From NCBI GenBank assembly GCA_045592425.1, contig JAZNUT010000018.1:5108-69107 (forward strand): a stretch of DNA of 64,000 nucleotides. Direction: 5' to 3'. The notes beneath the pieces were generated by a model. That model had not been told where the DNA came from. It did not search any database and worked only from the letters and a program-made list of their open reading frames with translations. The DNA comes from Candidatus Egerieisoma sp. (GTDB taxonomy: Bacteria; Bacteroidota; Bacteroidia; Bacteroidales; UBA932). A program made the position numbers and the translations under genes. Positions 13,708 to 42,235 of this stretch are shown in pieces. The first letter of the stretch is position 1; each line of letters starts with the position of its first letter.

Positions 13708-13719
13708 AAAACTAAAAAG

Positions 13720-14784: not shown

Positions 14785-14828
14785 CGTTGTCTTTTTGTAC
14801 AATTAAAAGATTATAAAGCAATTACAAA

Positions 14829-15848: not shown

Positions 15849-16171
15849 TGGAAAAGTTTGGATTTACCCTCAGCCCCAGTTCCAGAATAGACCTGGATAA
15901 AGTGGATAAGGAAAAATTTGCCAGACTGGTAAAAATAGAACCCGATGTGCTCAAATGTATGGCTTGCGGAAGCTGCAGTGCAAGCTGCACAGCCGGCAAG
16001 TTTACCCCTACCAGCCTCAGAAGTGCAATACTTGCACTGCAGAACGGCAAACCCCAACAGGCATTGGATATGCTAAAAGGGTGCCTTTTGTGCGGTAAAT
16101 GCACAATGGTATGTCCTCGGGCAATAAATACCAGACATCTTATTCTGGCAATAAACTCAATATATCAATAG
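15848..16171 (+). CDS. small HdrC2-like di-cluster ferredoxin
   Basis: CMACGSCSASC and CLLCGKCTMVCP motifs. The ATG overlaps the upstream TGA (GTGATG). Confidence 0.65.
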   Translation: MEKFGFTLSPSSRIDLDKVDKEKFARLVKIEPDVLKCMACGSCSASCTAGKFTPTSLRSAILALQNGKPQQALDMLKGCLLCGKCTMVCPRAINTRHLILAINSIYQ

Positions 16172-16210
16172 GAACCTGGAACAGTGCTCTGTTCCAAAAA
16201 TGGAATTGAA

Positions 16211-18049: not shown

Positions 18050-18093
18050 ACATGTTTAAATAACGTACTTTTGCACCCTCAAACAAGAATCTT

Positions 18094-19380: not shown

Positions 19381-19417
19381 CTAACTATAAACTATTCCAA
19401 CCTAACTGAAAACTGAA

Positions 19418-25686: not shown

Positions 25687-27075
25687 TTATACCAGAAACA
25701 AAAATCCAAGTATTACAATAATGGCCACTACAAACAAATCTATAAGACAATAGCCCATAATATCCTTTGCGTTAAGTTTTGCTATTGCAAGTGCCGGAAG
25801 GGCCCAGAACGGCTGGATAAGGTTTGTCCACGCATCACCATAAGCAATTGCCATACCTGTAACTGCAGGCTCAACACCAAGCTGCACACCGGCTGGAAGC
25901 ATGATTGGAGCCTGTACAGCCCATTGTCCACCACCACTTGGCACAAATACATTAACTATACCGGCACTAAGGAAACTGAGCATAGGGAATGTGGTTTCAT
26001 TGGAAATGGCAACACAAGCCTGGCTGATCTGCCCTGCAAGAGAAACACCCTCAGACGAAGCTGATGTCATAATACCCATAATTCCCGCATAGAAAGGGAA
26101 CTGCAGCAAAATTCCCGCAGAAGAGGATGCTGCCTTATTTACTGCCTTAACATATTTGATTGGGGTCTTGTGCAACACTATACCAAGGAACATGAAAAGC
26201 ATAATTACATTATTGAGATCCAAACTTCCCCCCTTAACAAAAATCCTTATAGCAAGGTATCCCAACCCCATCAGAGCTATTATTCCCGACAGCACCGCAC
26301 TGTTGTTAAGTTTCTCACTTGGAGTAAGTTTCCACTCCAATTTGCACTCCTTCTCCCCAATCGCTCCGCACAGTTCCCTCTCCTGCAAATCCTCCTCATC
26401 CCCAAGAAGGGCCGGATCTACTGTGAAAGTTTTGTCGGGAGCAGGATGCATGATTGTATTTACCACTGTAAGGGCAACAATTATTGCAAAGGCAATTATA
26501 AGGTTGTATGTTGCAAAAATAGTCTGGGAAATTGGAATTGCAGAGGTAATTGTACCTCTTGACACCTCTACAAGCGAAGCGCCATCTGTGGCCATTGCCA
26601 AAGGAATTGATGCGGAAAGGCCTGAGTGCCAAACCACAAATCCGCTGTATGCAGATGCTATAAGAAGTCTGTAATCTACACCTTTTACAGCTCTTGCAAT
26701 CTCCTTTGCAAAGATTGCACCCACAATAAGGCCAAAACCCCAGTTGATCCAACAAGCAATTGACGAGACCAAAGTAACTGTTGTAATGGCAGCTGCAGGT
26801 GTTTTAGGAAACGCAGCCATTTTGCGTAAGCACTTCTTAACCAGCGGGGCATCTGCAAGTGCAGAACCACAAACAAGAACAAGGGCCATCTGCATGGAGA
26901 ATGCAAGCAAACTCCATACTCCCCCACCCCAATTCTCAACCACCTCAAGAGGGGTCTGCCCTGTTGAGAAAATTGCTGCCAGAGCAGCCACAATGGTAAG
27001 AATAATTGCAAAAACAAATGGGTCGGGAAGATATTTCCTAATAAGTTTCACCGACAGATTTATCAATTTCTCCAT
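25687..27075 (-). CDS. atoE: short-chain fatty acid transporter (AtoE family)
   Basis: 462 aa with an AtoE-like N-terminus (KYLPDPFVFAIILTIV...) and a polytopic profile. Confidence 0.75.
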   Translation of the reverse strand: MEKLINLSVKLIRKYLPDPFVFAIILTIVAALAAIFSTGQTPLEVVENWGGGVWSLLAFSMQMALVLVCGSALADAPLVKKCLRKMAAFPKTPAAAITTVTLVSSIACWINWGFGLIVGAIFAKEIARAVKGVDYRLLIASAYSGFVVWHSGLSASIPLAMATDGASLVEVSRGTITSAIPISQTIFATYNLIIAFAIIVALTVVNTIMHPAPDKTFTVDPALLGDEEDLQERELCGAIGEKECKLEWKLTPSEKLNNSAVLSGIIALMGLGYLAIRIFVKGGSLDLNNVIMLFMFLGIVLHKTPIKYVKAVNKAASSSAGILLQFPFYAGIMGIMTSASSEGVSLAGQISQACVAISNETTFPMLSFLSAGIVNVFVPSGGGQWAVQAPIMLPAGVQLGVEPAVTGMAIAYGDAWTNLIQPFWALPALAIAKLNAKDIMGYCLIDLFVVAIIVILGFLFLV

Positions 27076-27112
27076 TCTTTATCAAATAAGTTATAATCGT
27101 TTGCAAATGTAT

Positions 27113-27138
27113 AAAAAAAGAGAGGCCGGTGGCCTCTC
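27113..27138 (-). terminator. rho-independent terminator after the His/Cys-rich lipoprotein gene
   Basis: Minus-sense GAGAGGCC-ACC-GGCCTCTC followed by TTTTTTT. Confidence 0.75.
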
Positions 27139-27158
27139 CTGCACAACTTTTTATGCTG

Positions 27159-27506
27159 TTATTTCTGTTCAGCAGCTTTTTTTGCAGCAGCCTCTTTGCA
27201 TTTGTCACACTGTTTGTCTGCAGGTTGGTCACACTCACCACTCTCATGGTTACATTTGTGCTCTCCCTCATTGTGGCTGCACTCATGTTTGGTAGAGTCT
27301 GCAGCGTGGTTGCATTTGTGCTCACCCTCTTTGTGGCTGCACTCGTGTTTGGTAGAATCTGCAGCGTGTTTGCATTTGTGCTCTCCCTCTTTATGGTTGC
27401 AAACATGCTCAGTAGCCTTTGTCTCAACCGCATCTTCGTTTGAGTTTGAATTGCCACATGCAGCAAATGCAAATGCTACTGCAGCCATAAGCAATAGTTT
27501 TTTCAT
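27159..27506 (-). CDS. small lipoprotein with three tandem His/Cys-rich 20-aa repeats
   Basis: Signal plus lipobox MKKLLLMAAVAFAFAAC. Repeats are H(V/E)C(N/S)HKEGEHKC(K/N)HAADSTK x2 plus a third partial copy, followed by CDQPADKQCDKC. The track start at 27539 lies upstream of the signal peptide, so ATG at 27506 is preferred. Confidence 0.65.
   Translation of the reverse strand: MKKLLLMAAVAFAFAACGNSNSNEDAVETKATEHVCNHKEGEHKCKHAADSTKHECSHKEGEHKCNHAADSTKHECSHNEGEHKCNHESGECDQPADKQCDKCKEAAAKKAAEQK
27251..27410. repeat. tandem 60-bp coding repeats inside the lipoprotein gene
   Basis: Units begin at 27251, 27311 and 27371 (T(A/G)CATTTGTGCTC...), are near-identical, and keep the reading frame (20 codons). 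Confidence 0.85.
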
Positions 27507-27556
27507 ATCTTGTATATATTTAGTTATGTTAATATGCAATCCTGGGCAAATTTAGT

Positions 27557-27588
27557 AAAAAAAAGAGAGCAGCAAAATTGCTGCTCTC
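27557..27588 (-). terminator. rho-independent terminator ending the lysine/butyrate operon
   Basis: Minus-sense GAGAGCAGCA-ATTT-TGCTGCTCTC followed by TTTTTTTT, 34 nt after the etfA stop. Confidence 0.85.
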
Positions 27589-27621
27589 CAAAATATTCAA
27601 ATGTAACTTAAAGCTACACAA

Positions 27622-28641
27622 TTATTTTTTAATCTCTTTTGCCAATCTCTCAGTAAGCATTGGAACAATCTTGTTAACATCACCAACAATACCAAGATCT
27701 GCAACCTGGAAAATAGGAGCAAATTTATCTTTGTTGATAGCGATGATAAGCTCAGACTCCTCCATACCTGCCAAGTGCTGGATAGCACCAGAGATACCGC
27801 AAGCCAAGTATAGGTCTGGACGTACAGTTTTACCAGTCTGACCAACCTGTCTGTCATGATCCATGATACCTGCATCAACCATTGCACGTGAAGATGAAAC
27901 CTCACCACCAATAACCTCTGCAAGAGCAGCAAGTTTCTCAAAGTTCTCTTTGTTACCAACACCTCTACCACCTGATACAAGTACTTTAGCCTCAGTAATG
28001 TCAACAAGACCTTTCTCAGCTTTAACAGTCTCAAGTAGTTTAACGGCAAATTTAGATGAATCAAATGTAGCAGTGAAAGGAATGATATTACCAGTTCTGG
28101 TAGCATCTTTCTCTTTTTTCTGCATAACACCTGGACGTACTGTAGCCATCTGAACACCCTCTTTAGCTGCAACGATAGAAGCCATTAGGTTACCACCAAA
28201 TGCAGGACGGGTCATCATAAGTTTTCTTGCCTCCAATTTAGGATCTGAACCGTCTGAAATCTCAAGTTTAGTACAGTCAGCAGTAAGACCTTTCTCCAAT
28301 CTTGCAGAAAGTCTTGGAGCCAAGTCTCTACCAATTGTAGTGGCACCAAACAATACGATATCTGGGTTCATAGCTGTAATAACCTGATATACAGCCTGAG
28401 TATATTGCTCAGTTACATAATCTTTAAGCTCAGGAGCATCAACTACGATAACATCATCAGCACCGTAAGCTATCAACTCATTAGCCTGATCAGCAATGTT
28501 ATGGCCAGCGAAAATAGCAACTACTTTATCGCCCAAAACATCAGCCAAATCTCTTGCTTTGCCTATAAGCTCTAGAGCAACAGGTTGGATAACACCCTCT
28601 CTCTGCTCTGCGAATACAAAAACATTCTTATTATTACTCAT
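27622..28641 (-). CDS. etfA: electron transfer flavoprotein alpha subunit
   Basis: 339 aa with the FAD-binding C-domain motif PDLYLACGISGAIQHLAGM. Confidence 0.92.
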   Translation of the reverse strand: MSNNKNVFVFAEQREGVIQPVALELIGKARDLADVLGDKVVAIFAGHNIADQANELIAYGADDVIVVDAPELKDYVTEQYTQAVYQVITAMNPDIVLFGATTIGRDLAPRLSARLEKGLTADCTKLEISDGSDPKLEARKLMMTRPAFGGNLMASIVAAKEGVQMATVRPGVMQKKEKDATRTGNIIPFTATFDSSKFAVKLLETVKAEKGLVDITEAKVLVSGGRGVGNKENFEKLAALAEVIGGEVSSSRAMVDAGIMDHDRQVGQTGKTVRPDLYLACGISGAIQHLAGMEESELIIAINKDKFAPIFQVADLGIVGDVNKIVPMLTERLAKEIKK

Positions 28642-28661: not shown

Positions 28662-29441
28662 TTAAATGATAAATTTCTCTTTAAGTTTGCTTACGATCAA
28701 GCCAACTGCCTGCTCAGCATCAACCTCGTGAACCTCACCAGCAGCTTTAACACCTTTGGTGAATGATTTGTAAACTCTTGTACCAGAGCCTTTCAAACCA
28801 AGCATCTCAAGAGGAAGATTTACTTTATCCACACCCCAAACAGCTACTGGTTTGTCAAATGCGTCAACGATACCTGCAACGTTCATATAACGGGCTTTGA
28901 AACCGCTTGCAAGAGCAGTAAGAAGAACTGGGCCAGCAACCTCTAGCATCTGGTAACCCTCCTCAGTCTCTTTCTTAACCAAGAATTTGCCATCTTTATA
29001 CTCAAGACCTGCAACATATGAAACCTGTGGAAGGCCAAGGTGCTCAGCAATCTGAGGACCTACCTGAGCAGTATCACCGTCAATTGCCTGACGACCTGCA
29101 ATAATCAAGTCATACTCAAGGTTCTTAAGAGCTGCAGCAATAGTGTGTGATGTAGCCAAAGTATCAGCACCACCAAACTCTCTACCTGTTAGCAAAATAG
29201 CCTCGTCTGCACCCATAGCGTATGCCTCTCTTAGGATAGCATCTGCTTGAGGAGGACCCATTGTAATTACTGTTACGTGTGCACCATACTGGTCTTTCAA
29301 CTGTAGAGCCATCTCCAAGCCACCTTTATCATCAGGGTTCATAATGCTTGGAACGCCGTCACGGATAAGTGTACCTGTTACAGGGTTAATTTTAATTACT
29401 GTAGTATCAGGTACTTGTTTAATACAAACTACTATTTTCAT
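28662..29441 (-). CDS. etfB: electron transfer flavoprotein beta subunit
   Basis: MKIVVCIKQVPDT N-terminus; 259 aa. Confidence 0.92.
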   Translation of the reverse strand: MKIVVCIKQVPDTTVIKINPVTGTLIRDGVPSIMNPDDKGGLEMALQLKDQYGAHVTVITMGPPQADAILREAYAMGADEAILLTGREFGGADTLATSHTIAAALKNLEYDLIIAGRQAIDGDTAQVGPQIAEHLGLPQVSYVAGLEYKDGKFLVKKETEEGYQMLEVAGPVLLTALASGFKARYMNVAGIVDAFDKPVAVWGVDKVNLPLEMLGLKGSGTRVYKSFTKGVKAAGEVHEVDAEQAVGLIVSKLKEKFII

Positions 29442-29452
29442 ACTGTGTGATT

Positions 29453-30592
29453 TTACTTAAATAATTTTGCTGCAATTACCATTCTCTGAACCTCTGAAGT
29501 TCCCTCGTAGATCTCGGTGATCTTAGCGTCACGCATCATTCTCTCTACTGGATACTCTCTGGTGTAACCATAGCCACCGTGGAACTGAACTGCTTTAGTA
29601 GTTACCTCCATTGCAGTCTCAGCAGCGAACAATTTACCCATAGCTGCATCAGCTGAGAAAGGCATACCCATATCCTGTTTCCAAGCAGCCTGTCTAACCA
29701 ATAGACGAGCAGCCTGTACTTTAGTCTCAAGGTCAGCCATCTGGAACTGAGTATTCTGGAATGCAGAGATTGATCTGCCAAACTGTTTTCTCTCTTTAGT
29801 ATATTTAACAGTCTCATCCATAGCACCCTGAGCGATACCAAGAGCCTGTGAAGCGATACCGATACGGCCACCGTCCAAAGTTTTCATAGCAACTTTGAAG
29901 CCCTCACCCATTTTACCAAGCATATTAGCTTTAGGAACGCGGCAGTTCTCAAAAATTAGCTCGCAAGTAGCAGAACCTCTGATACCAAGTTTGTGCTCTT
30001 TTTTACCAATTGAGAAACCAGGAGTACCAGCCTCTACAATGAAAGTGGTGATACCTTTGTTTCCTTTTGATTTGTCAGTCATAGTAGCAACTACATATAC
30101 GTGAGCAGGACCAGCATTGGTAATGAAAATCTTGCTACCGTTTAGGATATAGTCGTCACCATCCTCTACAGCAGTTGTCTGCTGACCTGCAGCATCAGTA
30201 CCTGCATTAGGCTCAGTAAGACCGAAAGCACCAATCCACTCGCCACTTGCAAGTTTTGGAAGGTATTTCTGTTTCTGCTCCTCAGTACCGAACTCCCAAA
30301 TTGGAGACATACACAATGAAGTGTGAGCTGAAAGAATTACACCGGTAGTAGCACATACTCTAGAAAGCTCCTCTACAGCTATAGAATACATAATGTGGTC
30401 ACCACCAGCACCACCATAGTTTTTAGGAATGTAGATACCAAATAGACCTAGTTTAGCCATTTTCTCAACGGTCTCCATAGGGAATCTCTCAGTATCATCC
30501 ACCTCTGCAGCAAGAGGTTTTACCTCTTTCTCAGCAAACTCTCTAATCATTTGCTGGAACAATTGCTGTGTTTTAGTAAGTCCGAAATTCAT
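29453..30592 (-). CDS. bcd: butyryl-CoA dehydrogenase (acyl-CoA dehydrogenase, short-chain)
   Basis: 379 aa with ACAD motifs (GLTEPNAGTDA; QFHGGYGYTREYPVERMMRDAKITEIYEGTSEVQ), adjacent to etfBA. Confidence 0.9.
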   Translation of the reverse strand: MNFGLTKTQQLFQQMIREFAEKEVKPLAAEVDDTERFPMETVEKMAKLGLFGIYIPKNYGGAGGDHIMYSIAVEELSRVCATTGVILSAHTSLCMSPIWEFGTEEQKQKYLPKLASGEWIGAFGLTEPNAGTDAAGQQTTAVEDGDDYILNGSKIFITNAGPAHVYVVATMTDKSKGNKGITTFIVEAGTPGFSIGKKEHKLGIRGSATCELIFENCRVPKANMLGKMGEGFKVAMKTLDGGRIGIASQALGIAQGAMDETVKYTKERKQFGRSISAFQNTQFQMADLETKVQAARLLVRQAAWKQDMGMPFSADAAMGKLFAAETAMEVTTKAVQFHGGYGYTREYPVERMMRDAKITEIYEGTSEVQRMVIAAKLFK

Positions 30593-30603: not shown

Positions 30604-31266
30604 TTAATTTAAGTTAACCTGTTTTAAGTTTTCAGAAATGATAAGTTTAGCCTCTGTAGCCTCCTGAACCTGCTCTACAGTAAACTCAGGATTAATCTCA
30701 GTAAGCATAATGCCATCTGGAGTAATCTCCATTACACCCATCTCGGTAATGATCATATTTACCTGACCTGCAGCTGTAAGCGGCAAACGGCATTTTTTAA
30801 GAATCTTATGATTGCCTTTAGCTGTGTGCTCCATTGTAAGGATAACCTTTTTAGCACCAACCAAAAGGTCCATAGCACCACCCATACCTGGGGTTTTCTT
30901 GCCAGGAATCATCCAGTTTGCCAAGTCTCCTTTCTCATCAACCTCAAGTGCACCAAGGAAAGTAACATTTACGTGACCACCTCTGATAACGCCAAAGCTT
31001 GTAGCAGAATCAAATGAAGCGGCTCCAGGCTGATATGTGATATATCCGCCACCGGCATTTACCCAATGCGGATCCTCTGTACCCTCAGCAGGAGTAGGTC
31101 CCATACCAAGCAAACCGTTCTCTGACTGCAATGTAACTCGAACACCCTCTGGAAGGTAGTTAGGGATAATGGTTGGCAAGCCAATACCCAAGTTCACTAC
31201 ATCACCGTCTTTAATCTCTAGAGCTGCCCTTTTGGCAATAAATTCTCTAATTTGATTTTTGTCCAT
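30604..31266 (-). CDS. atoA: 3-oxoacid/acetoacetate CoA-transferase subunit B
   Basis: 220 aa with the motif SENGLLGMGP containing the catalytic Glu context of family I CoA-transferase beta subunits. Confidence 0.88.
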   Translation of the reverse strand: MDKNQIREFIAKRAALEIKDGDVVNLGIGLPTIIPNYLPEGVRVTLQSENGLLGMGPTPAEGTEDPHWVNAGGGYITYQPGAASFDSATSFGVIRGGHVNVTFLGALEVDEKGDLANWMIPGKKTPGMGGAMDLLVGAKKVILTMEHTAKGNHKILKKCRLPLTAAGQVNMIITEMGVMEITPDGIMLTEINPEFTVEQVQEATEAKLIISENLKQVNLN

Positions 31267-31285: not shown

Positions 31286-32071
31286 TTATTTGTTTCTCTT
31301 GACAAACTCCTGAGCTACAAATGATGCAACATCATCTGCATAAGTGTTTGCGCCAAAACCTGCATCATAGCCAAGCTCTTTTGCAAGCTCATGGCTAATT
31401 CTCGGACCACCGCAAACAACAATCATCTTGTCTCTCAAGCCCTCTGCCTCCATAAGCTCAATCAGCTCAGTAAGGTTCTGGATATGAACATCCTTCTGGG
31501 TAACAGTCTGTGAAACAAGGATAGCATCCGCTTTAAGTTCAATTGCTTTTGCAAGGAACTCCTCATTTGGAACCTGGCTACCAAGGTTATAAGCCTCCAC
31601 CATGTCATATCTCTCAAGACCGTAGTGACCTGCATAACCTTTCATGTTCATAATAGCATCAATACCTACTGTATGGGCATCTGTACCTGTAGAAGCACCA
31701 ACAAGAACAAGTTTTCTGCCAATATTCTCCTTGATGTACTCATCGCACTCATGCATATCCATTGTGTTGCTCTCTACTTTTGGAACATAGATATTTGAGT
31801 AATCTACTGTGTGGGTAAGGTTACCATAGCAGTTGAAGAATGTAAAGCCCTCAGTAAGCTCTTTTGAGAACGCAACAAGAGGGTTCTCAAAACCCATTTT
31901 CTTCATTAGCAATTTAGCAGCCTCCTCAGCCTCAGCACCGTTTGGAACTGGCAATGTAAAGCTCACCTGAACTTTACCGTCGTTCATTGTATCACCGTAT
32001 GGTTTTACTTTTGTTAGATCAAGAGTCTGGTCAAAATCTTTTGCCGACATTGAATATAGTCCACCAGCCAT
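31286..32071 (-). CDS. kamE: beta-lysine (D-lysine) 5,6-aminomutase beta subunit, B12-binding
   Basis: B12-binding DxHxxG motif (TDAHTVG) in a Rossmann-like domain, preceded by the typical N-terminal PLP-binding region. It starts 2 nt after the kamD stop. Confidence 0.85.
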   Translation of the reverse strand: MAGGLYSMSAKDFDQTLDLTKVKPYGDTMNDGKVQVSFTLPVPNGAEAEEAAKLLMKKMGFENPLVAFSKELTEGFTFFNCYGNLTHTVDYSNIYVPKVESNTMDMHECDEYIKENIGRKLVLVGASTGTDAHTVGIDAIMNMKGYAGHYGLERYDMVEAYNLGSQVPNEEFLAKAIELKADAILVSQTVTQKDVHIQNLTELIELMEAEGLRDKMIVVCGGPRISHELAKELGYDAGFGANTYADDVASFVAQEFVKRNK

Positions 32072-32073
32072 AA

Positions 32074-33627
32074 TTATTTTCTCCCTTTCATTAAGTTAAT
32101 AAATGGATTCATATAGTTGGCACCCTTCTCAACAACGCCATCCAAACCTTTACCACCAACTCTGCTTCTCTTAACATCACCAAAGATACCTTTCTCCAAT
32201 GCGTTGAACAATCCCTCTGAAGTCATCTGCTCCAAAAGTGCAATTGCATTGTCAAGAACCTCTTTAGCTCTGTTTCTAATAATACCGCCCTCTTTAAACT
32301 CCATCTCGTCACCAATGCTCTTCATGTTGTTGAAGATATATTTGGCATTCTCAATTGACAAGAAACGGTCACTCATGAATGGAGTATGGATAGCCTCAGT
32401 AGGCATACCAAGAAGCTGAAGACCCTGGTTTGTCCAGATACCAATCATGTTGAACAAAGCATCCTGCAAATGACCTCTAAAGATATTACCGGTCATGAAT
32501 TTTGTAGGAGGCATATATTTAAGCGGTGCTTTAGGGAAGATTTCTCTTGCCATCTGAGCCTGTGCAAGCTCAAACAAGAAACCGTTCTCCAACATAGGAT
32601 CCATCTCAAATGCGTGGCCAAGACCCATCTGCTCCTCTGGAAGACCTGCCAATAGAGCCAACTGCTCGTTGATAAGGTCAGAAGCCAAAACTGTGTGTGC
32701 AGCCTCTACAGCATCTGCAGTTGTAAGGTAGTTATCCTCACCTGTATTGATGATTACACCTGCAAAACCGTTGATAACTCTACTCATGAACTGGTCAATA
32801 AGAGTTCTCTGCATATTGATATCGCGGAACAAGATACCGTAAAGAGCGTCATTCAACATAACGTCAAGCCCCTCAAACGCACCCATAATGGCAATCTCAG
32901 GCATACACAAACCAGAACAGTAGTTACATACTCTGATATATCTTCCAAGCTCCTCACCAACTTTATCCATAGCCTCACGCATGATCTTGAAGTTGGCCTG
33001 AGTAGCATAAGTACCACCGAATCCCTCTGTTGTAACACCGTAAGGAACATAGTCCAACAAGCTCTGTCCTGTAGTTCTGATAACCGCAATAATATCAGCA
33101 CCCTGTCTTGCAGCAGCCTCAGCCTGAACAACATCCTCATAAATGTTACCTGTAGCAACAATTACATACAAGTAAGGTTTTGGACCCTCACCAATTGTAT
33201 TAAGGTAATTCTCTCTGCGCTCTCTTCTTGCTCTGATTTTAGCAATGCTGCTGTCAATAACCGGTTGAAGAACCGCCTCAATGGCAGCTTTGTCAGCAAC
33301 CTCAATCTTAGTAAGATCCAAAGCACCTGTTGCAACTTTCTCAGCAACCTCCTGTGGAGTAAGGCCTGTGCTTACCATAGCATTTGCTATATAGAACAGA
33401 ACACCCTCACCAAGGACACCTTTAGATTTAAGGTCATCAACTACAACGTTTGGAAGCGGAACCTGATTCTCATCAACTCCGTCAATTCCCATAAGTCTGC
33501 ACAATGTACGCTCAACAGCTACAGTTGTCTTAGACTCAACAAAGGCCTGAACCTCATTGGCAATCTCCTTTGCCAACGACTTTGCGTGCTCAACCTTTTT
33601 AAAATCCAATCCTAATTTACTCTGCAT
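32074..33627 (-). CDS. kamD: beta-lysine (D-lysine) 5,6-aminomutase alpha subunit
   Basis: 517-aa TIM-barrel subunit, immediately upstream of kamE in a lysine fermentation gene context. Confidence 0.85.
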   Translation of the reverse strand: MQSKLGLDFKKVEHAKSLAKEIANEVQAFVESKTTVAVERTLCRLMGIDGVDENQVPLPNVVVDDLKSKGVLGEGVLFYIANAMVSTGLTPQEVAEKVATGALDLTKIEVADKAAIEAVLQPVIDSSIAKIRARRERRENYLNTIGEGPKPYLYVIVATGNIYEDVVQAEAAARQGADIIAVIRTTGQSLLDYVPYGVTTEGFGGTYATQANFKIMREAMDKVGEELGRYIRVCNYCSGLCMPEIAIMGAFEGLDVMLNDALYGILFRDINMQRTLIDQFMSRVINGFAGVIINTGEDNYLTTADAVEAAHTVLASDLINEQLALLAGLPEEQMGLGHAFEMDPMLENGFLFELAQAQMAREIFPKAPLKYMPPTKFMTGNIFRGHLQDALFNMIGIWTNQGLQLLGMPTEAIHTPFMSDRFLSIENAKYIFNNMKSIGDEMEFKEGGIIRNRAKEVLDNAIALLEQMTSEGLFNALEKGIFGDVKRSRVGGKGLDGVVEKGANYMNPFINLMKGRK

Positions 33628-33638
33628 ATAATTGTATG

Positions 33639-34985
33639 TTAGTTATTTAAGTTTTTCTTAGTAAATTCAATCCACTGCGGATCAATACCAAGGCTCTCTG
33701 CAATTGCAACGGCCTCATGCGGCACATCCCCACAATGGGTAACCTCAAGGGTATAATCCATCGCACCATTCCTCAAACCACGCACTCTATACCTCTTAAC
33801 CTTGTCATTGAGAATATTGTAATGGGTTGTGAGTACAAAACCACCCTTAACATCCCCAACAACCTCTAACAACCCTTCAACCAAAGCAGTACCCTCCACA
33901 GGGTTTGTAGTTCTTGCCGGCTCATCTACAAGGGCAAGGATACACTTACCTTCCCTTATCTTCCCGATAACTTTATTTATTGCAAGAATTTCACCTGCAA
34001 AAGATGAAACCCCCTTAACAATACTCTGCTCATCCCCAATACAGAGAATCACCTCCCCGACAAGGCTCACGCAACAGTCATGCGCAGCCACACCAAAACC
34101 GAACTGGGCCAACAACTGGTTCAATGCCAAACATTTGAGTACAACACTCTTTCCTCCCATATTGGCACCTATAATAGTAACAGGCTCCCCCTCATAACAT
34201 ATGTCAACCGGCATGTACTCCCTACCCTGCTCCTGAAGCATCTGTTTTACCGCCGGATTGAACATTCCATTATAAAAAGTCTCACCCTCCTCCACTATCA
34301 CAGGGAAACACAATCCCAATTTCTTCATCTGGGCAGCCTTTGCAATAAGAATATCCAAAACCGAAAGATTTCTCAATGCAAATGACAAATCATCTGCAAA
34401 CGCCTCCAATTCTTTGCAAAGCTCTCCCCTTATCTCAAGTTCCAAATCAGCATTTTTCTGCAACAGAACTGCCAACTCCGCCCTTTTATCATCGGGAAGC
34501 TCCTCCCCATTACCCTGCAAATCCCTCATCTGTTTCCTGATCTGTCTCAATTCATCCGAATAAGAGTCATACACATAGAATGAAGGGATATTCAGAGAGT
34601 CCGGGTCCAGAATCTCCACAACCTTTCCAAGCTCCGGCAATCCCACTGCAATAATCCTCTGCTCATCAAGCAACTTCTTTATCTCTCCTGATACAATTGC
34701 CAGATATTTAACCTCAAAGAGCTCTATATCGTCCAAAACAGCACCAGAGGACAATCTCTCCAAAGTTGCCTGTATATCTTTAATACACATCAACTTATGT
34801 GCAATCTTGGTACAATCCTTATCATAAATCTCATTCAGTCTGCGGTAATAGAAATCCAGCTCCCTCTTTGTCTGCATCATCTCCCCCTGCAAAAGCATTT
34901 TTCTGCCGCAAGGAGACATGATATCCAAAGTATCATACATGTACCTTAAACCACAATCTATATCAAGTGCAGACTTAAATGTCAT
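33639..34985 (-). CDS. MutS-related ATPase (core/clamp plus domain V only; no mismatch-binding or Smr domain)
   Basis: Walker A IGANMGGKSV, Walker B LALVDEPARTTN, and the TTHY motif. At 448 aa it is too short for MutS1/MutS2. It overlaps the upstream gene by 11 nt. Confidence 0.75.
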   Translation of the reverse strand: MTFKSALDIDCGLRYMYDTLDIMSPCGRKMLLQGEMMQTKRELDFYYRRLNEIYDKDCTKIAHKLMCIKDIQATLERLSSGAVLDDIELFEVKYLAIVSGEIKKLLDEQRIIAVGLPELGKVVEILDPDSLNIPSFYVYDSYSDELRQIRKQMRDLQGNGEELPDDKRAELAVLLQKNADLELEIRGELCKELEAFADDLSFALRNLSVLDILIAKAAQMKKLGLCFPVIVEEGETFYNGMFNPAVKQMLQEQGREYMPVDICYEGEPVTIIGANMGGKSVVLKCLALNQLLAQFGFGVAAHDCCVSLVGEVILCIGDEQSIVKGVSSFAGEILAINKVIGKIREGKCILALVDEPARTTNPVEGTALVEGLLEVVGDVKGGFVLTTHYNILNDKVKRYRVRGLRNGAMDYTLEVTHCGDVPHEAVAIAESLGIDPQWIEFTKKNLNN

Positions 34986-35994
34986 ATTTATTCTTAACTA
35001 TATCATAAACCGGAAGCCCTAAAGCATCCTGTAATTTTTCACACAAAATATCACTGTCCAAAACATATCCGTTTGGAGCAGTAGGGTTCACACAAACTGC
35101 AACCAACTTGCTCTTTTGCAAAACCTTAATTTTACCACCCCTCGCACAAAAGATTCTGTAAGCTTGCTCACTCACAAAAATCTTTGTAAAATCCTTCACC
35201 ACTAGGGTAACCTCCTTGACATTCTTTGAATCTGCCACCAGATTCAAAAGTTTGTCGGTAAGTGCACCCACTGTAAAAACCAACTTCATACCATCTGTAA
35301 TATCACCCTTTAAAGAACTGATAGCCAATGCAGAAGTGATTTTAAAATCAATAATGTTCCCCTCATGGTCAACCCCCCATACACCACTCTCAATATCGCA
35401 AAGTGCATCCCTGCTTCCGTCCTCCAACTTTGGAAGTCCAATCATCTCCACCACAAACTTTGTCTTCTGAACCAAAGTATTGATATTTGACGAAAAAGCA
35501 GCTCCTGTAGAAAGTACCATAGCCTTGCTTATGGCCGGAGAGGCAGAGCTCAATCTTGAGATTGCCCCGTCAATAATGGTAAGATCAATCCCAAATTTCT
35601 CCATCCCAGCAACCCATCTTCTCAATGATACTCCCGATGAAGGCCCTGAGATCAACGCCTTCCCCCCTACAGAGACCTTTGCTGTAAGAATCCTTCCCAA
35701 AGAACTTCTCTCATTTGTAATCTCAACAAGCTCACTTACAAGCCTTCTCTCCTTATAATGAGCCTCTGCTGTTGAGAAATACATCCCCTCCCTCAAAAAT
35801 ATCTCAGGTTTCTTGGTAGCTGTAACCTGATCCTTATTCTCTCCATCTATACCTATAGAGGTTACCGCTACCCGCTTTTCATGTAGCGGTAACCTGTACA
35901 GGATATAATTCAAACACTCTGTCTTGCCCACATTCTTTTCCAATCCTACAATAGACAAACTGTCATATTTCAGTATCTCATTAATGAAAGGCAT
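34975..35994 (-). CDS. uncharacterised protein with BioD/CobQ-type P-loop, conserved partner of the MutS-like gene
   Basis: N-terminal SIVGLEKNVGKTE has the same spacing as the dethiobiotin-synthetase/CobB-type GxxxxxGKT loop. The rest has no motif I recognise. Confidence 0.5.
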   Translation of the reverse strand: MPFINEILKYDSLSIVGLEKNVGKTECLNYILYRLPLHEKRVAVTSIGIDGENKDQVTATKKPEIFLREGMYFSTAEAHYKERRLVSELVEITNERSSLGRILTAKVSVGGKALISGPSSGVSLRRWVAGMEKFGIDLTIIDGAISRLSSASPAISKAMVLSTGAAFSSNINTLVQKTKFVVEMIGLPKLEDGSRDALCDIESGVWGVDHEGNIIDFKITSALAISSLKGDITDGMKLVFTVGALTDKLLNLVADSKNVKEVTLVVKDFTKIFVSEQAYRIFCARGGKIKVLQKSKLVAVCVNPTAPNGYVLDSDILCEKLQDALGLPVYDIVKNKYDI

Positions 35995-36011: not shown

Positions 36012-37259
36012 CTATTTCTTAGATCTCTCTTTTCTGCTGAGTACAGAAGGCTCAATAGCCATTCCTTTACCCTCAAGCAATGAAGATACACCCTCAATAG
36101 ATTTGTTCTGAGCAGCTTTGCAGTACTCGCAGTTGCACTCGTTCTTATAATCTGTAGGCTCTGTATAAGTGGTGATAACACCCTCAAAGTTTCTAAGAAC
36201 AACTTTACCAGGAGCCTGTGAAATAACATACTGAGGCATAACAGGAGTTTTTCCACCACCACCTGGAGCATCAACTACAAATGTAGGAACTGCATAACCT
36301 GAAGTATGGCCTCTCAAGCCCTCAATAATCTCAATACCTTTAGATACTGGAGTTCTGAAGTGCTCAATACCCATAGAAAGGTCACACTGGTAGATGTAGT
36401 AAGGTCTTACACGCATCTTAACCAACTCATGCATAAGTTTCTTCATAGTGTTTACACAGTCGTTCACACCACGTAGAAGCACTGTCTGGTTACCCAATGG
36501 AATACCTGCGTTAGCCAATTTTGCACAAGCCTCAGCAGCCTCTTTGGTAACCTCCTGTGGATGGTTGAAGTGAGTGTTCAACCATACTGGATGATACTTC
36601 TTAAGCATATTTACAAGGTCATCAGTAATACGCTGAGGACAAACTACAGGAGTTCTTGAACCAAGTCTGATAATCTCTACGTGAGGGATAGCTCTAACTC
36701 TTGAAATGATATACTCCAATCTCTCGTCGCTTACGCACAAAGAGTCACCACCTGAAAGAAGCACGTCTCTAACCTGTGGAGTTTTAGCAATATACTCAAT
36801 AGCCTTGTCAATTCTGTCAATAGCGCTCTCACCATCTTTCTGGCCTGCAAAACGTCTTCTTGTACAGTGACGGCAGTACATTGAGCACATATCAGTGATA
36901 AGAAGAAGAACACGGTCAGGATATCTGTGAGTCAAACCAGGAACTGGAGAATCCTCATCCTCATGTAGAGGGTCAAGAAGGTCTGCAGGAGACTGGTAAG
37001 TCTCTTTTCCTGTAGGTACAGCCTGTTTTCTAACAGGGCAGTTAGGATTATTAGGGTCAATCAAGCTTATATAATAAGGAGTGATTGCCATTCTAAGAGT
37101 CTGAAGGGTCTTTTTAACACCCTCTTCCTCCTCTGGAGTAAGAGATACATATTTTTTAAGATCCTCAAGAGTCTCAATTCTATTTTTTACCTGCCATTTC
37201 CAATCGTTCCACTGCTCGTCGGTAACATTAGGGAACAGCTCATAACGTCTAGATTCCAT
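36012..37259 (-). CDS. kamA: L-lysine 2,3-aminomutase (radical SAM, PLP)
   Basis: CSMYCRHCTRR radical-SAM motif with the KamA-type N-terminus (WNDWKWQVKNRI) and C-terminus. Confidence 0.93.
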   Translation of the reverse strand: MESRRYELFPNVTDEQWNDWKWQVKNRIETLEDLKKYVSLTPEEEEGVKKTLQTLRMAITPYYISLIDPNNPNCPVRKQAVPTGKETYQSPADLLDPLHEDEDSPVPGLTHRYPDRVLLLITDMCSMYCRHCTRRRFAGQKDGESAIDRIDKAIEYIAKTPQVRDVLLSGGDSLCVSDERLEYIISRVRAIPHVEIIRLGSRTPVVCPQRITDDLVNMLKKYHPVWLNTHFNHPQEVTKEAAEACAKLANAGIPLGNQTVLLRGVNDCVNTMKKLMHELVKMRVRPYYIYQCDLSMGIEHFRTPVSKGIEIIEGLRGHTSGYAVPTFVVDAPGGGGKTPVMPQYVISQAPGKVVLRNFEGVITTYTEPTDYKNECNCEYCKAAQNKSIEGVSSLLEGKGMAIEPSVLSRKERSKK

Positions 37260-37370: not shown

Positions 37371-38441
37371 TTATGCGTAAAGTTCAGTAAAGATTTTTCT
37401 CAAAGCCTCACACTCTCTTAGCTCCTGTAGAGTAAACTCAGCGTGACCTTTAGTATATCCGTTACCAATAATCATATTAACATCTGAACCGATACCCTCA
37501 GCACCAAGAGCAGCCTTTGTAAAGCTTGTAGCCATAGAGAAGAAGTAAACAACACCGTCATCTTTTGTACAAAGAACAGCTGTCATCTCCTGATCTGGAA
37601 CGTTTACACAGTTGATGGTAACATCAGCCATTTTACCGTTAGTAAGGTTTGAAACAAGCTCATTAACCTGAACTGGAGTCATACCGCCAATACTCTCAAC
37701 TACGTCACAGAAACCAAGATCTTTGATACGCTGAGTACTTCTCTGAGAATTGGTCAAACCAATAACTTTACCTGTTACACCAACACGTTTTTTAGCCTCG
37801 TAGCAGCAAAGCATACCTGATTTACCACCAGCACCAAGAACAACTACATTCTGGCCATACTGGCAAAGTTTTGCAGTCTGTGCAGGAGCACCGGCAACGT
37901 CAAGTGCAGACAATGCAAGTTTCTCTGGCATATCATCTGGAATCTTAGCGTAGATACCACTCTCAAACAAGATAGCTTTACCTTTAATATCTACCTGGTC
38001 AACATCTGGACGAATCTCAAGAATCTCATCAATTCTAAGTGGAGTAAGTGACAAAGAAACTAGTGTAGCGATACGGTCACCCTCTTTAATGTCAATTTTA
38101 CCTTTAAGAGCGTCACCAATTTTCTCAACTTTACCAAGAAGCATACCACCTGAACCGGTACGACGGTTACGGTGTTTACCCTGCAACTCAACGTTAAGGA
38201 AAATCTCTTTCTTAACCTCTTCCATGATCTGCTCCTCTGTAGCACCCTCACCAGCCTGCTGTTTAGCGTAGTTGTGAATGTCAGTAAATGATGCAGAGTC
38301 AATATTAAGTGTCTGAACGTCAATCAAGATCTCGTTATCATAGATCTCGTCCATGTTATTGTCAATTTTGTTAGCTGGCTGTGGAAGAACGCCAACTGGC
38401 TCAATCACGCGGTGAACACCGTATTTATTACCTTTTTTCAT
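37371..38441 (-). CDS. kdd: L-erythro-3,5-diaminohexanoate dehydrogenase
   Basis: 356 aa with the Rossmann motif VVVLGAGGKSG. Position and length match kdd of lysine fermentation clusters. Confidence 0.8.
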   Translation of the reverse strand: MKKGNKYGVHRVIEPVGVLPQPANKIDNNMDEIYDNEILIDVQTLNIDSASFTDIHNYAKQQAGEGATEEQIMEEVKKEIFLNVELQGKHRNRRTGSGGMLLGKVEKIGDALKGKIDIKEGDRIATLVSLSLTPLRIDEILEIRPDVDQVDIKGKAILFESGIYAKIPDDMPEKLALSALDVAGAPAQTAKLCQYGQNVVVLGAGGKSGMLCCYEAKKRVGVTGKVIGLTNSQRSTQRIKDLGFCDVVESIGGMTPVQVNELVSNLTNGKMADVTINCVNVPDQEMTAVLCTKDDGVVYFFSMATSFTKAALGAEGIGSDVNMIIGNGYTKGHAEFTLQELRECEALRKIFTELYA

Positions 38442-38461: not shown

Positions 38462-39316
38462 TTATTTTCTTGGTTTAAGACCTAAAATTTCACGAGCCTC
38501 AGCAGAAGTTGCTACCTCTCTGCCCAACTCTTTAGCCATACGTACAACTTTGGCAACCATCTCACCATTTGATTTTGCAAGAACACCTTTCTCAATATAG
38601 ATGCTGTCCTCAAAACCAACGCGTACGTTACCGCCCATTGCTATTGCAGCGGCGGCAAGGTTGAACTGATGGCGGCCGATACCGGTTGCTGTCCAGGTTG
38701 AACCTGCAGGGATAGCATTCACCAACCAGCAAAGGTTCTGAACAGTTGCAGGAGTACAGCCAGGTACGCCAAGTACAAAGTTGAACTGCATAGGAGCACC
38801 AGGAACCTGGCCTTTTTTAGCCATGTTAAGGATGGTGTCAAGGTGACCCATCTCAAAGCACTCGTACTCAGGTTTGATATCGTTCTCAAGCATTCTTTTT
38901 CCAAATGCTCTCATAATAGGCATAGTGTTCTCAAACACATCGTCACCAAAGTTGCAGGTACCGCAATCCAAAGTAGCCATCTCTGGGAACAGCTCAGTTG
39001 GCTGAAGACGCTCCTCAGCTGACATACCTACCGCACCACCAGTAGAAGGGATAAGGATTACATCCGGACACTCTTTAAGAATAGCGTCAATACACTCTTT
39101 GAAACGAGCTTTGCTCTGGGTAGGGGTACCGTCATCCTCTCTTACATGCAAGTGAACAATAGCTGCACCTGCATCAACAGCTGATTTAGCCTCTCTAACA
39201 ATTTCCTCTACAGTATAAGGAACTGCAGGGTTCTGCTCTTTGGTTACCTCAGCACCGCAAATAGCAGCAGTAATGATAAGTTTAGCCATATCAGTTGTTA
39301 TTTTTTTCTTTGGCAT
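38462..39316 (-). CDS. kce: 3-keto-5-aminohexanoate cleavage enzyme (BKACE/DUF849)
   Basis: 284-aa BKACE-type TIM-barrel pattern ([11 protein letters not shown]...HLHVRE). Confidence 0.85.
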
Positions 39317-39687
39317 TTAACAGGAACTACGCAAGTACCGCTTGCTTTACATACAAGGATTGGCTCCTCAAGAACGTCAGCAGCAGAGTCAGAGATGTCA
39401 GGACGAGGTACGATAACTTTCTTAGCCTCAAATACCATCTTTCTTGATGAATTTCCTGTAGAAACGATCTCACCGGTTGCCTCAATGTAATCACCTGCAT
39501 AAACAGGAGCCATGAACTCAACGCTGTCATAAGCTTTAAACAAACCCTCGTCACCATCATTGATGATAAGAAGCTCAGTTGCAACGTCACCGAACAAGTT
39601 CAACATTCTTGCGCCGTCAACAAGGTTTCCACCGTAATGAGCATCGTGGCAGCTCATTCTAACTCTAATTAAAGCTTTTTTAGTCAT
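39298..39687 (-). CDS. kal: 3-aminobutyryl-CoA ammonia-lyase (hotdog fold)
   Basis: 129-aa small hotdog-like protein between atoD and kce, as in described lysine fermentation clusters. It overlaps kce by 19 nt. Confidence 0.7.
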
Positions 39688-39707: not shown

Positions 39708-40355
39708 TTATTTTGAGTAAATATAATCAACAAAAATTGCAGGGGTATGAACCTGCTCAGGAGCAATCTCTCCAGTTTTAACAACCTTCTCAGCCTCTAC
39801 AATCACCAAATCAGCGGCAGTTGCCATAAGCGGGTTGAAGTTCTGGGTTGTTCCAACATATACAAGGTTACCATCCTCATCTGCCAAAGTAGCACCCAAA
39901 AGGGCTACATCAGCTTTGATAGGTTTCTCCAAAAGGTACTCTTTGCCATCAATGACAATGGTCTGTTTGCCCTCAGCAACTACAGTACCCAAACCTGTAG
40001 GGGTAAGAACACCACCCAAGCCTGCACCTGCAGCTCTCACTCTCTCTGCCAATGTACCTTGAGGACTGAACTCAATCTCCAACTCGCCCGAGTTCATCTG
40101 CTCACTGGTATTAGGGTTGGTTCCAATATGTGATACAATAACCTTCTTCACCTGTTTGTTGGTAATAAGCTTTCCATGTGCAACATCTGCATAAGCAGTA
40201 TCATTACAAACAAGGGTAAGATCCTTCACACCACTTTTTGCCAATTCATCAAGAATTGCAATTGGGCTACCGGCAGCCAAAAAACCGCCAACCATTACTG
40301 TCATGCCATCCTTTACCTTAGAAACGGCATCCTGCAAAGAAATTCTTTTGTCCAT
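39708..40355 (-). CDS. atoD: 3-oxoacid/acetoacetate CoA-transferase subunit A
   Basis: 215 aa with N-terminus DGMTVMVGGF typical of family I CoA-transferase alpha subunits. Confidence 0.88.
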   Translation of the reverse strand: MDKRISLQDAVSKVKDGMTVMVGGFLAAGSPIAILDELAKSGVKDLTLVCNDTAYADVAHGKLITNKQVKKVIVSHIGTNPNTSEQMNSGELEIEFSPQGTLAERVRAAGAGLGGVLTPTGLGTVVAEGKQTIVIDGKEYLLEKPIKADVALLGATLADEDGNLVYVGTTQNFNPLMATAADLVIVEAEKVVKTGEIAPEQVHTPAIFVDYIYSK

Positions 40356-40525: not shown

Positions 40526-40568
40526 TCTTGCGTAAAAGCCAAAATTGAAAATCAACAATAAAAACACT

Positions 40569-41348
40569 ATGGAATACACAAAACTTATTGTAGAAAAACA
40601 GGATGCTGTTTGCATTGTAAAAATCAACAACCCTCAGGCAATGAACGCTTTGAACTCAACAGTCCTTAGCGAGCTTGATGCTGCTTTCACAGAGATTGCC
40701 GCTGATCCACAAATTAAGGTTGCCGTTATTACCGGTGAGGGTCGTGCGTTTGTTGCAGGTGCGGATATTGCACAAATGAGCACAATGAACGCAACTGAGG
40801 GCAAAGCTTTCGGTGAGCAGGGTGCTGCAGTATTCAGAAAAATCGAGACACTCCCTGTCCCTGTCATTGCGGCTGTCAACGGCTTTGCATTGGGTGGAGG
40901 TTGTGAGCTTGCCATGGCTTGTGACATCAGAATTGCATCAGCAAAGGCAAAATTCGGCCAACCGGAGGTTGGTTTGGGCATCACCCCTGGTTTCTCGGGA
41001 ACACAAAGACTTCCAAGACTTGTCGGGATGGGTATTGCAAAAGAACTTATCTATACAGCAGACATTATTGATGCTGCAGAGGCATACAGAATTGGCCTTG
41101 TAAATAAAGTTGCGGAGCCTGAGGTACTTATGGAGGAGACCATGAAGATGGCTGCCAAAATAGCCTCCAAAGCCCCTATAGCTGTACGATACAGCAAAGA
41201 GGCTATAAACAGAGGAGTTCAGACAGACATTGACACTGCCATTGCAATTGAGGCCAACCTGTTCGGACTTTGCTTTGCAAGCGAGGACCAGAAAGAGGGT
41301 ATGGGTGCTTTCCTCAAGAAAGAGGCTCCACAGTTCAAGAACAGATAA
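40569..41348 (+). CDS. crt: crotonase / short-chain enoyl-CoA hydratase
   Basis: ECH motifs (ITGEGRAFVAGADI; NGFALGGGCELAMACDIRIA). The track start at 40545 is TTG, so ATG at 40569 is preferred. Confidence 0.9.
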   Translation: MEYTKLIVEKQDAVCIVKINNPQAMNALNSTVLSELDAAFTEIAADPQIKVAVITGEGRAFVAGADIAQMSTMNATEGKAFGEQGAAVFRKIETLPVPVIAAVNGFALGGGCELAMACDIRIASAKAKFGQPEVGLGITPGFSGTQRLPRLVGMGIAKELIYTADIIDAAEAYRIGLVNKVAEPEVLMEETMKMAAKIASKAPIAVRYSKEAINRGVQTDIDTAIAIEANLFGLCFASEDQKEGMGAFLKKEAPQFKNR

Positions 41349-41389
41349 CAGACATTTAACATAACATAAACTAAATTTTACAGAATACT

Positions 41390-42235
41390 ATGAAAGTAGC
41401 AGTTGTAGGTAACGGAACAATGGGTAACGGTATTGCCCAGACATTTGCAGTTGCAGGTCACGACGTAATCATCAAAGGCCGTTCAGACGCATCATTGGCT
41501 AAAGCTCACGCTTCTATTGAGAAAAGCCTTGCAAAAATGGTTGAGAAAGGCAAAATGGAGGCTGCAGACAGAGATGCAACCCTTGCAAGAATCAAAGACA
41601 CAAAAGTATATGAGGATCTTGCAGATGTAGATCTTGTAGTAGAGGTTGTGGCAGAGGATATGGCCATTAAAGAGGAGATTTTCAAAACTTTGGATCAGAT
41701 TTGCAAACCAGAGGCTATTTTGGCAACAAACACCTCTTCACTTTCAATCACTCAGGTTGCTTCTTATACAAACCGTCCTGAGAAAGTTATTGGAATGCAC
41801 TTCTTCAACCCTGTTCCAATGATGAAACTTGTAGAGGTTATCAAAGGCCAGCTCACTTCAGACGAGGTTCACCAGACTATCATAGAGGTTTCAAAACAGA
41901 TTGGCAAAACCCCTGTTACAGTTAATGAGGCTCCTGGTTTTGTTGTTAACAGAATCCTTATCCCTATGGTTAACGAGGGTATCGGTATCCTTGCAGACGG
42001 CGTAGCTACAAAAGAGGAGATTGACGAGGCTATGAAACTTGGTGCAAACCACCCAATGGGACCTTTGGCTCTTGCAGACCTTATCGGTTTGGATGTATGT
42101 CTTGCAATCATGGAGGTTCTTTACAATGAGTTCGGTGATACCAAATACAGACCTCACCCACTACTTAGAAAAATGGTTAGAGCCAAATTGCTTGGTAGAA
42201 AAACCGGCGTTGGTTTCTATGACTACAGAAAATAA
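41390..42235 (+). CDS. hbd: 3-hydroxybutyryl-CoA dehydrogenase
   Basis: MKVAVVGNGTMGNGIAQ NAD fold plus the 3HCDH C-domain; 281 aa. Confidence 0.92.
   Translation: MKVAVVGNGTMGNGIAQTFAVAGHDVIIKGRSDASLAKAHASIEKSLAKMVEKGKMEAADRDATLARIKDTKVYEDLADVDLVVEVVAEDMAIKEEIFKTLDQICKPEAILATNTSSLSITQVASYTNRPEKVIGMHFFNPVPMMKLVEVIKGQLTSDEVHQTIIEVSKQIGKTPVTVNEAPGFVVNRILIPMVNEGIGILADGVATKEEIDEAMKLGANHPMGPLALADLIGLDVCLAIMEVLYNEFGDTKYRPHPLLRKMVRAKLLGRKTGVGFYDYRK

Follow-up and report, generated by a model that had tools for sequence, protein, structure and literature searches.

What role do a gene for a MutS-like ATPase and a gene for a P-loop protein that matches no Pfam family play in a lysine-fermentation operon, where they are lodged between the genes of two lysine aminomutases? 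The question is posed by a 64,000-nucleotide (nt) stretch of contig JAZNUT010000018.1 from Candidatus Egerieisoma sp. (positions 5,108 to 69,107 of the forward strand), which was analysed at its full length and is referred to as the window; all coordinates below are window positions. The two genes are kamB (34975..35994, minus strand; an open reading frame of 339 amino acids (aa) with an ATG start, 36.9 kDa) and kamC (33639..34985, minus strand; 448 aa, ATG start, 49.9 kDa), and the core order in the window is kamA-kamB-kamC-kamD-kamE. The DNA shows that they overlap by 11 nt (34975..34985, minus strand, ATGACATTTAA), the kamC ATG lying within the last kamB codons, which suggests translational coupling; an overlap or a tight kamB-kamC junction is also found in the closest relatives among the Bacteroidota loci. 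An earlier, sequence-only reading of the window had described just such a coupled pair between kamA and kamD-kamE, and had proposed that it acts as an ATP-dependent reactivase of the aminomutase and not in DNA repair. The open reading frames lie where that reading placed them, and the motifs it quoted (GLEKNVGKT in KamB; GANMGGKS, DEPARTTN and TTHY in KamC) are all present in the translations. Both are real, conserved genes, as thousands of homologues were found in a word-indexed search (2781 for kamB and 2085 for kamC at E ≤ 1e-3). Clustered at 50% identity, the KamB family amounts to 1831 clusters at E ≤ 1e-3, and 386 of these reach E ≤ 1e-30; the closest KamB in genome records is 96% identical and comes from metagenome-assembled genomes labelled Candidatus Egerieisoma sp.

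The identity of the pair was established with curated NCBIfam equivalog models. KamB scores 338.3 bits (cut-off 210) against NF052386, 'lysine 5,6-aminomutase reactivase subunit KamB', with residues 13–332 aligned to the entire model (1–326 of 326). KamC scores 383.8 bits (cut-off 300) against NF052383, 'lysine 5,6-aminomutase reactivase ATPase KamC'; the match falls in two stretches, the better of which pairs residues 168–445 with model positions 209–507 of 508, because the compact window protein does not have three extra segments (about 9, 5 and 24 residues) that are carried by most KamC proteins from outside the Bacteroidota (467–535 aa). With both equivalogs above cut-off, and a 2024 paper whose title names such a factor, the pair very probably represents the Bacteroidales KamB and KamC, the ATP-dependent reactivase of the B12-dependent lysine 5,6-aminomutase KamDE. 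The proposal of a reactivase in place of a repair function is thus upheld; the accompanying description of the system as still uncharacterised is out of date, as the equivalog models and the title of the 2024 paper attest. The function of KamBC and its NCBI naming are already known, and the pair is not new: NCBI names KamC in the complete genome of Helicovermis profundi, and the UniRef name of the Clostridium bowmanii homologue begins 'lysine 5,6-aminomutase reactivas'.

The names carried by the remaining records are of a different kind. Among the homologue lists, KamC is mostly labelled 'DNA mismatch repair protein MutS' or 'endonuclease MutS2' and KamB mostly 'hypothetical protein', the reactivase name of KamC appearing on a few recent records only. 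The value of the assignment for annotation is that records now reading 'MutS', 'MutS2' or 'hypothetical protein' should become KamC and KamB.

The biochemical literature provides the setting for this identification. According to a review (PMC3958899), native lysine 5,6-aminomutase (5,6-LAM) is made up of E1 and an ATP-dependent helper protein, E2 (about 80 kDa), which it needs; recombinant KamDE by itself shows activity but is prone to suicide inactivation. The summed mass of the window KamB and KamC, 86.8 kDa, compares with the approximately 80 kDa of E2 (PMC3958899). Genes marked 'HP' and 'mutS' appear in the lysine clusters that a 2011 paper draws for Fusobacterium nucleatum, Ca. Cloacamonas and a Bacteroidetes contig, and the figure legend assigns them no function (PMC3149608); the same legend bears out the MutS-plus-hypothetical pair that the sequence-only reading had placed in the F. 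nucleatum cluster. Darbyshire & Wolthers (Biochemistry 2024, 63:913; ref 39 in PMC12633315) name an ATP-dependent reactivating factor of lysine 5,6-aminomutase in the title of their paper.

If KamC belongs to a reactivase, what kind of ATPase is it? An AlphaFold2 model built from an alignment of 41 sequences has a predicted local distance difference test score (pLDDT) of 90.0 and a predicted template modelling score (pTM) of 0.87. Searched with Foldseek, the model matched MutS2 along its entire length, best of all the structures 7qv3 and 7vuf (E 1e-23, query TM-score (TMq) 0.71–0.78): Bacillus subtilis MutS2 (7qv3) was matched at E 1e-23 and the core region of the Thermus thermophilus protein (7vuf) with a TMq of 0.71–0.73 and a target TM-score (TMt) of 0.68–0.71. 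All 50 of the 50 best fold matches are MutS-family proteins, and the best solved relative by sequence is likewise MutS2 (phmmer, 1.7e-20). Pfam finds MutS_V (PF00488) alone, at residues 271–398 with 64.7 bits; in the same search, neither domain I (PF01624) nor the connector domain II of MutS1 was matched, and in the test for MutS2 there was no match to Smr (PF01713), the protein stopping at residue 448. KamC is therefore a MutS2-like ATPase that comprises the core and lever helices and domain V, without domain I and without Smr, in agreement with the earlier description of a MutS core and ATPase lacking mismatch-recognition and Smr domains.

The motif columns of the ATPase domain are preserved throughout the 41 KamC sequences. 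In the Walker A motif GANMGGKS (residues 273–280; 34146..34169, minus strand), G273, A274, N275, M276, G278 and K279 are invariant, as are S327 and F329 of an S-x-F element. The Walker B motif and its adjoining loop, DEPARTTN (residues 354–361; 33903..33926, minus strand), contribute the invariant D354, E355, T360 and N361, and the MutS-type His loop TTHY (residues 386–389; 33819..33830, minus strand) the invariant T387 and H388; all three motifs were placed by translation and alignment. These columns predict a working ATP site. The C-terminal helices 424–431 and 436–447 presumably correspond to the helix-turn-helix that stabilises MutS dimers, and we infer that KamC dimerises. In the alignment with B. 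subtilis MutS2, some 29 KamC residues (159–188) stand opposite some 87 (167–254), which we take to be the clamp; the deficit of about 58 residues suggests that the clamp region is largely deleted in KamC.

The likeness to MutS2 invites another explanation, that KamC is a nucleic-acid-directed protein of the MutS2 type, acting in recombination suppression or the rescue of collided ribosomes and carried in the operon as a passenger, with KamB unrelated to it. Its best sequence and fold matches are indeed MutS2, and public records often name its homologues 'DNA mismatch repair protein MutS' or 'MutS2'. Yet KamC scores only 155.5 bits against TIGR01069 (mutS2), where the cut-off is 400, and covers model positions 234–471 of 790 only; against TIGR01070 (mutS1) the score is 75.9 bits for a cut-off of 641.7. 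It is devoid of Smr, MutS domain I and the KOW-like part, and true MutS2 proteins bearing Smr (PF01713) are only distant matches (E 1e-13 or weaker). As kamC, moreover, keeps its place between kamB and kamD in different phyla and exceeds the cut-off of its own equivalog, NF052383, a MutS2-type passenger is most improbable.

KamB is the less familiar of the two subunits. Its AlphaFold2 model (pLDDT 86.3, pTM 0.84) has an N-terminal P-loop alpha/beta domain, formed by strand 12–17, the loop, helix 24–34 and strand 42–46, which is interrupted by a beta-rich insertion (approximately residues 47–113) and resumes with helix 121–134 and strand 138–143. A second alpha/beta domain, which matched no known family, extends from about residue 190 to the C-terminus. 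The loop itself, GLEKNVGKT (residues 17–25; 35920..35946, minus strand; translation and alignment), has the spacing GxxKxxGKT, and its G17, K20, G23, K24 and T25 show no variation across 38 sequences that reach down to 28% identity. Equally invariant are D142, G143 and R147, which belong to IIDGAISR (residues 140–147; 35554..35577, minus strand), a candidate Walker B or switch element located where a beta-strand ends. N29, S46, G48, D50, G51, E52, D55, K62, P63, N303 and P304 are also invariant in the 38 sequences.

Searches with KamB returned a class and not a family. Foldseek against the Protein Data Bank (PDB) gave no close solved structure for the KamB model (best E 1.3e-3, TM-score about 0.25), and a sequence profile search of the PDB with KamB yielded nothing beyond a non-significant P-loop match, to cyclic 2,3-diphosphoglycerate synthetase (E 0.87). 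The weak fold matches are almost all SIMIBI-class nucleoside triphosphatases, namely Get3, Wzc, ParA/MinD/Soj, FtsY/SRP54 and, again, cyclic 2,3-diphosphoglycerate synthetase. Pfam matched no family in the window KamB, and the sub-threshold matches among the 38 members are scattered over MobB (7), DUF1611 (4), CbiA, AAA_26 and CobW (2 each). The N-terminal half of KamB is a SIMIBI-class P-loop domain. The sequence-only reading had called the protein BioD/CobQ-type, and this holds in part: the loop meets the extended BioD spacing GxxxxxGK[TS] and the broad P-loop class is right, although this spacing alone does not define membership of BioD/CobQ. Membership itself was rejected, as no Pfam threshold is reached and the fold search lends no support; the window KamB has no match to AAA_26 or CbiA (the Pfam families of BioD and CobQ-CobB) at E ≤ 0.01, and the sub-threshold matches to these two among the members (2 of 38 each) lie at E 0.03–0.08. 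A second candidate identity, a DdrB-like mimic of the B12 subunit, was also rejected: comparison of the KamB and KamE profiles with hhalign gave a probability of 0.2% and E 0.25, and the missing similarity argues against a subunit-mimic mechanism in the style of DdrB.

The class of the KamB domain bears on whether the pair might chiefly load or synthesise adenosylcobalamin (AdoCbl), as an adenosyltransferase or a delivery chaperone of the ATR/MeaB kind, instead of ejecting damaged cofactor. KamB shares the broad SIMIBI P-loop class with MeaB-type G-proteins, and an old report ascribes 'AdoCbl synthetase activity' to E2 (PMC3958899). The 2024 paper, as far as its title goes, and the NCBIfam names nevertheless speak of a reactivase, the top 50 fold matches of KamB include no MeaB-type protein, and the CobW family appears among its members as sub-threshold matches in just 2 of 38. 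On these names and matches, we consider a primary role in loading or synthesis unlikely, with a little more in its favour than the MutS2-type passenger.

If the two proteins serve KamDE, their genes should travel with those of the aminomutase. Gene order was compared in 80 Bacteroidota genome loci (L001–L080), each count being made over the loci with enough sequence. Downstream of kamB, kamC follows within 400 nt in 64 of 70 loci and kamD is found in 44 of 53; kamA lies upstream of kamB in 66 of 72. Outside the Bacteroidota, where taxonomy was assigned through KamC homologues that carry names and the contigs they lie on, the same succession of kamA, a Pfam-less protein of about 340 aa, a MutS_V protein, kamD and kamE was found in five more places: Clostridium bowmanii, Helicovermis profundi, Ca. 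Rifleibacterium amylolyticum, a Haloplasmataceae-type contig (so called after the NCBI label of a protein it encodes) and a metagenome contig with a KamB just 30% identical to that of the window. The kamA-B-C-D-E order thus recurs in Bacteroidota, Bacillota, the Haloplasmataceae-type contig and Riflebacteria. The sequence-only reading had held that its proposal would fall if the genes did not co-occur with kamDE outside this lineage; since the synteny of kamBC with kamDE spans several phyla, they do.

Some loci depart from this order, and they could be taken to mean that KamB serves KamA, the radical S-adenosylmethionine (SAM) 2,3-aminomutase, and that the B12 enzyme is the client of KamC alone. 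In four loci (L062, L064, L074, L080), kamA and kamB are adjacent without kamC and kamDE within 8 kb. Set against these are the overlap of kamB with kamC and their joint occurrence in the 64 of 70 loci, a further four loci (L019, L054, L067, L070) that have kamBC without kamA, and the NCBIfam classification of KamB as a reactivase subunit. KamB and KamC reportedly co-purified in the 2024 study, and this too counts against a partnership of KamB with KamA, to which we give hardly any credence.

Several points weigh against the identification of the pair as the KamDE reactivase. The last four loci lack not only kamA but also kamD and kamE within 8 kb of kamBC, two others (L075, L079) have kamB alone within 8-kb flanks, and the four kamA-kamB loci are without the client genes as well; with this minority of Bacteroidota loci lacking kamDE within 8 kb, the linkage of kamBC to kamDE is strong, not absolute. 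KamB has no similarity to KamE, and neither subunit is similar to the other B12 reactivases or chaperones known. The primary reactivase paper enters the argument by its title, and the evidence for the Bacteroidales KamBC consists of genes and models.

The same loci yielded further observations on the genes and their neighbours. Median identity to the window across the Bacteroidota loci is 55% for KamB and 41% for KamC, and 79%, 82% and 84% for the enzymes KamA, KamD and KamE, so that KamBC diverges much faster; even L001, the closest relative, has a KamC of 90% identity, with KamA and KamE at 100%. A crotonase gene comes after kamA-kamB in L074, and a phosphate butyryltransferase gene is a neighbour in L070 and L075. 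Ca. Rifleibacterium amylolyticum (L083:8467-10783) has a gene of the arginine-deiminase (ADI) family (PF02274) and a 328-aa Pfam-less gene between kamC and kamD, and an ADI-family gene adjoins the lysine cluster of the Haloplasmataceae-type contig (L085:13875-15158). Two tandem kdd-like genes, with products about 75% and 56% identical to the window Kdd, lie upstream of kamA in two Bacteroidales loci (L047:4026-6416 and L062:3594-5782).

How might the two subunits act on the aminomutase? The fermentation of lysine to butyrate, acetate and ammonia is notable in gut and oral anaerobes, and because the B12 enzyme of the pathway destroys its cofactor as it turns over, a repair factor is required. 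KamB and KamC of F. nucleatum reportedly hydrolyse ATP, and KamBC is said to swap hydroxocobalamin for AdoCbl on 5,6-LAM and to be inactive on ornithine 4,5-aminomutase. In the proposed sequence of events, KamDE would inactivate itself in turnover and lose the adenosyl group, so that oxidised cobalamin would be left on KamE. KamC, probably as a nucleotide-driven dimer, would supply the conformational work through ATP binding and hydrolysis, and KamB, which may be made in fixed proportion with KamC by way of the 11-nt gene overlap, would probably be the subunit that recognises the client or handles the cofactor. Together they would release the damaged cobalamin, and intact AdoCbl would rebind. 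As KamB and KamC are unlike the other reactivases and chaperones, these steps rest on analogy. The analysis shows family membership, domain content, intact catalytic motifs, operon position and cross-phylum synteny; the dimer of KamC, the subunit that would touch KamDE and any hydrolysis of nucleotide by KamB go beyond these.

A more specific arrangement, which we put forward tentatively and regard as rather doubtful, would have two nucleotide-dependent modules: the KamB P-loop would be a working nucleoside triphosphate site that gates the release or hand-over of cobalamin, like a MeaB-type switch, and KamC would perform the mechanical work. The KamB residues in question are G17, K20 and G23-K24-T25 together with D142-G143 and R147. 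If true, this would place such a role in a P-loop fold without a solved relative. Equally tentatively, the stand-alone kamBC pairs of some Bacteroidia could point to clients beyond KamDE.

The surroundings of the pair are those of a catabolic operon. kamBC sits in a 13-gene minus-strand lysine-to-butyrate operon running from 40355 to 27622, with intergenic spacings of −19 to 20 nt except for 111 nt before kamA; the kamB-kamC overlap and the gaps of 11–20 nt to the neighbouring genes indicate one transcription unit. The operon opens with CoA-transferase subunit A (39708-40355), followed by kal (39298-39687), kce (38462-39316) and kdd (37371-38441), all on the minus strand and identified by NCBIfam profile matches (as a set, and not in gene order, to NF052388, NF052387, NF052381 and TIGR02429). 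kal and kce are separate genes here and overlap by 19 nt (39298-39316); the NCBIfam 'exception' model NF052389 describes a fused bifunctional Kal/Kce, which each of the two matches in part. Next comes kamA, the radical SAM lysine 2,3-aminomutase (36012-37259, minus strand; TIGR03820, 620 bits), and, beyond kamBC, kamD (32074..33627, minus strand; NF052384, 924 bits; PF09043) and kamE (31286..32071, minus strand; NF052385, 418 bits; PF16554 and PF02310). The downstream genes, spaced by 11–20 nt and likewise on the minus strand, are CoA-transferase subunit B (30604-31266; profile match), an acyl-CoA dehydrogenase, probably butyryl-CoA dehydrogenase (29453-30592), etfB (28662-29441) and etfA (27622-28641); the names of the last three hold at family level only because their scores fall below the curated NCBIfam cut-offs. 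Crotonase and 3-hydroxybutyryl-CoA dehydrogenase genes (40545-42235) are transcribed divergently from the operon, and the whole is a complete lysine-to-butyrate fermentation locus.

A terminator-like hairpin found by consensus scan just 3' of etfA (27564..27589, minus strand; an 11-bp stem and then a T run) is likely to mark the 3' end of the operon. It is one of two strong minus-strand terminator-like hairpins (27589..27564 and 27140..27118) in the 546-nt gap (27076-27621) between etfA and a gene at 25687-27075 of the TIGR00366 family, presumably short-chain fatty acid transporters, whose score is slightly under the curated cut-off; the start codon of that gene follows the second hairpin after only about 40 nt. 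A scan for sigma-70-type promoters, the consensus of which fits Bacteroidota poorly, found 32 against 31.5 expected from shuffled controls. Rfam, searched at gathering thresholds, has no match in the window, which also lacks transfer RNA genes, and control of the operon by a riboswitch or other RNA was rejected. Further away, a plus-strand cluster at 13012-21124 encodes heterodisulfide-reductase-like proteins (a 4Fe-4S dicluster protein, two CCG cysteine-rich-domain proteins and a flavin adenine dinucleotide (FAD)/pyridine-nucleotide oxidoreductase), with a MarR regulator ahead of it (12508-12993) and a pyridoxal-phosphate-dependent (PALP) enzyme and a SulP/STAS transporter after the heterodisulfide-reductase-like genes.

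Each component of the system can be compared with better-known proteins. KamC shares with MutS2 the lever and core helices and the ABC-type ATPase domain V, and differs from it in the absence of the Smr nuclease domain and KOW-like region and in its metabolic gene context. The reactivases DdrAB/GdrAB and EutA are Hsp70/actin-like ATPases, with folds unrelated to the MutS-like KamC and the SIMIBI P-loop protein KamB, and no Hsp70/actin-like (ASKHA) protein occurs in the top 50 fold matches of either subunit. By general knowledge and the title of the KamBC paper, they are nonetheless like KamBC in the ATP-dependent release of damaged cobalamin and in having their genes beside that of the client. 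DdrB, in addition, resembles the B12-binding subunit of its client, whereas the window KamB does not resemble KamE. MeaB/ArgK, MobB, BioD, CobQ and DUF1611 belong to the same broad SIMIBI class as the N-terminal domain of KamB, which adds to it the beta-rich insertion (47–113) and the unmatched C-terminal alpha/beta domain; membership of KamB among the G3E GTPase chaperones of the MeaB/ArgK kind is not supported by its 50 best fold matches or by the CobW-family matches. A MutS-type ATPase as a B12 repair factor, in place of an Hsp70-like protein or a G-protein, is unusual and already on record: the window pair is alike to the F. nucleatum KamB and KamC in its equivalog families, its position between kamA and kamDE, its two-gene layout and its KamC ATPase motifs, and differs in a compact KamC of 448 aa without the insertions of about 9, 5 and 24 aa found in most KamC proteins from outside the Bacteroidota.

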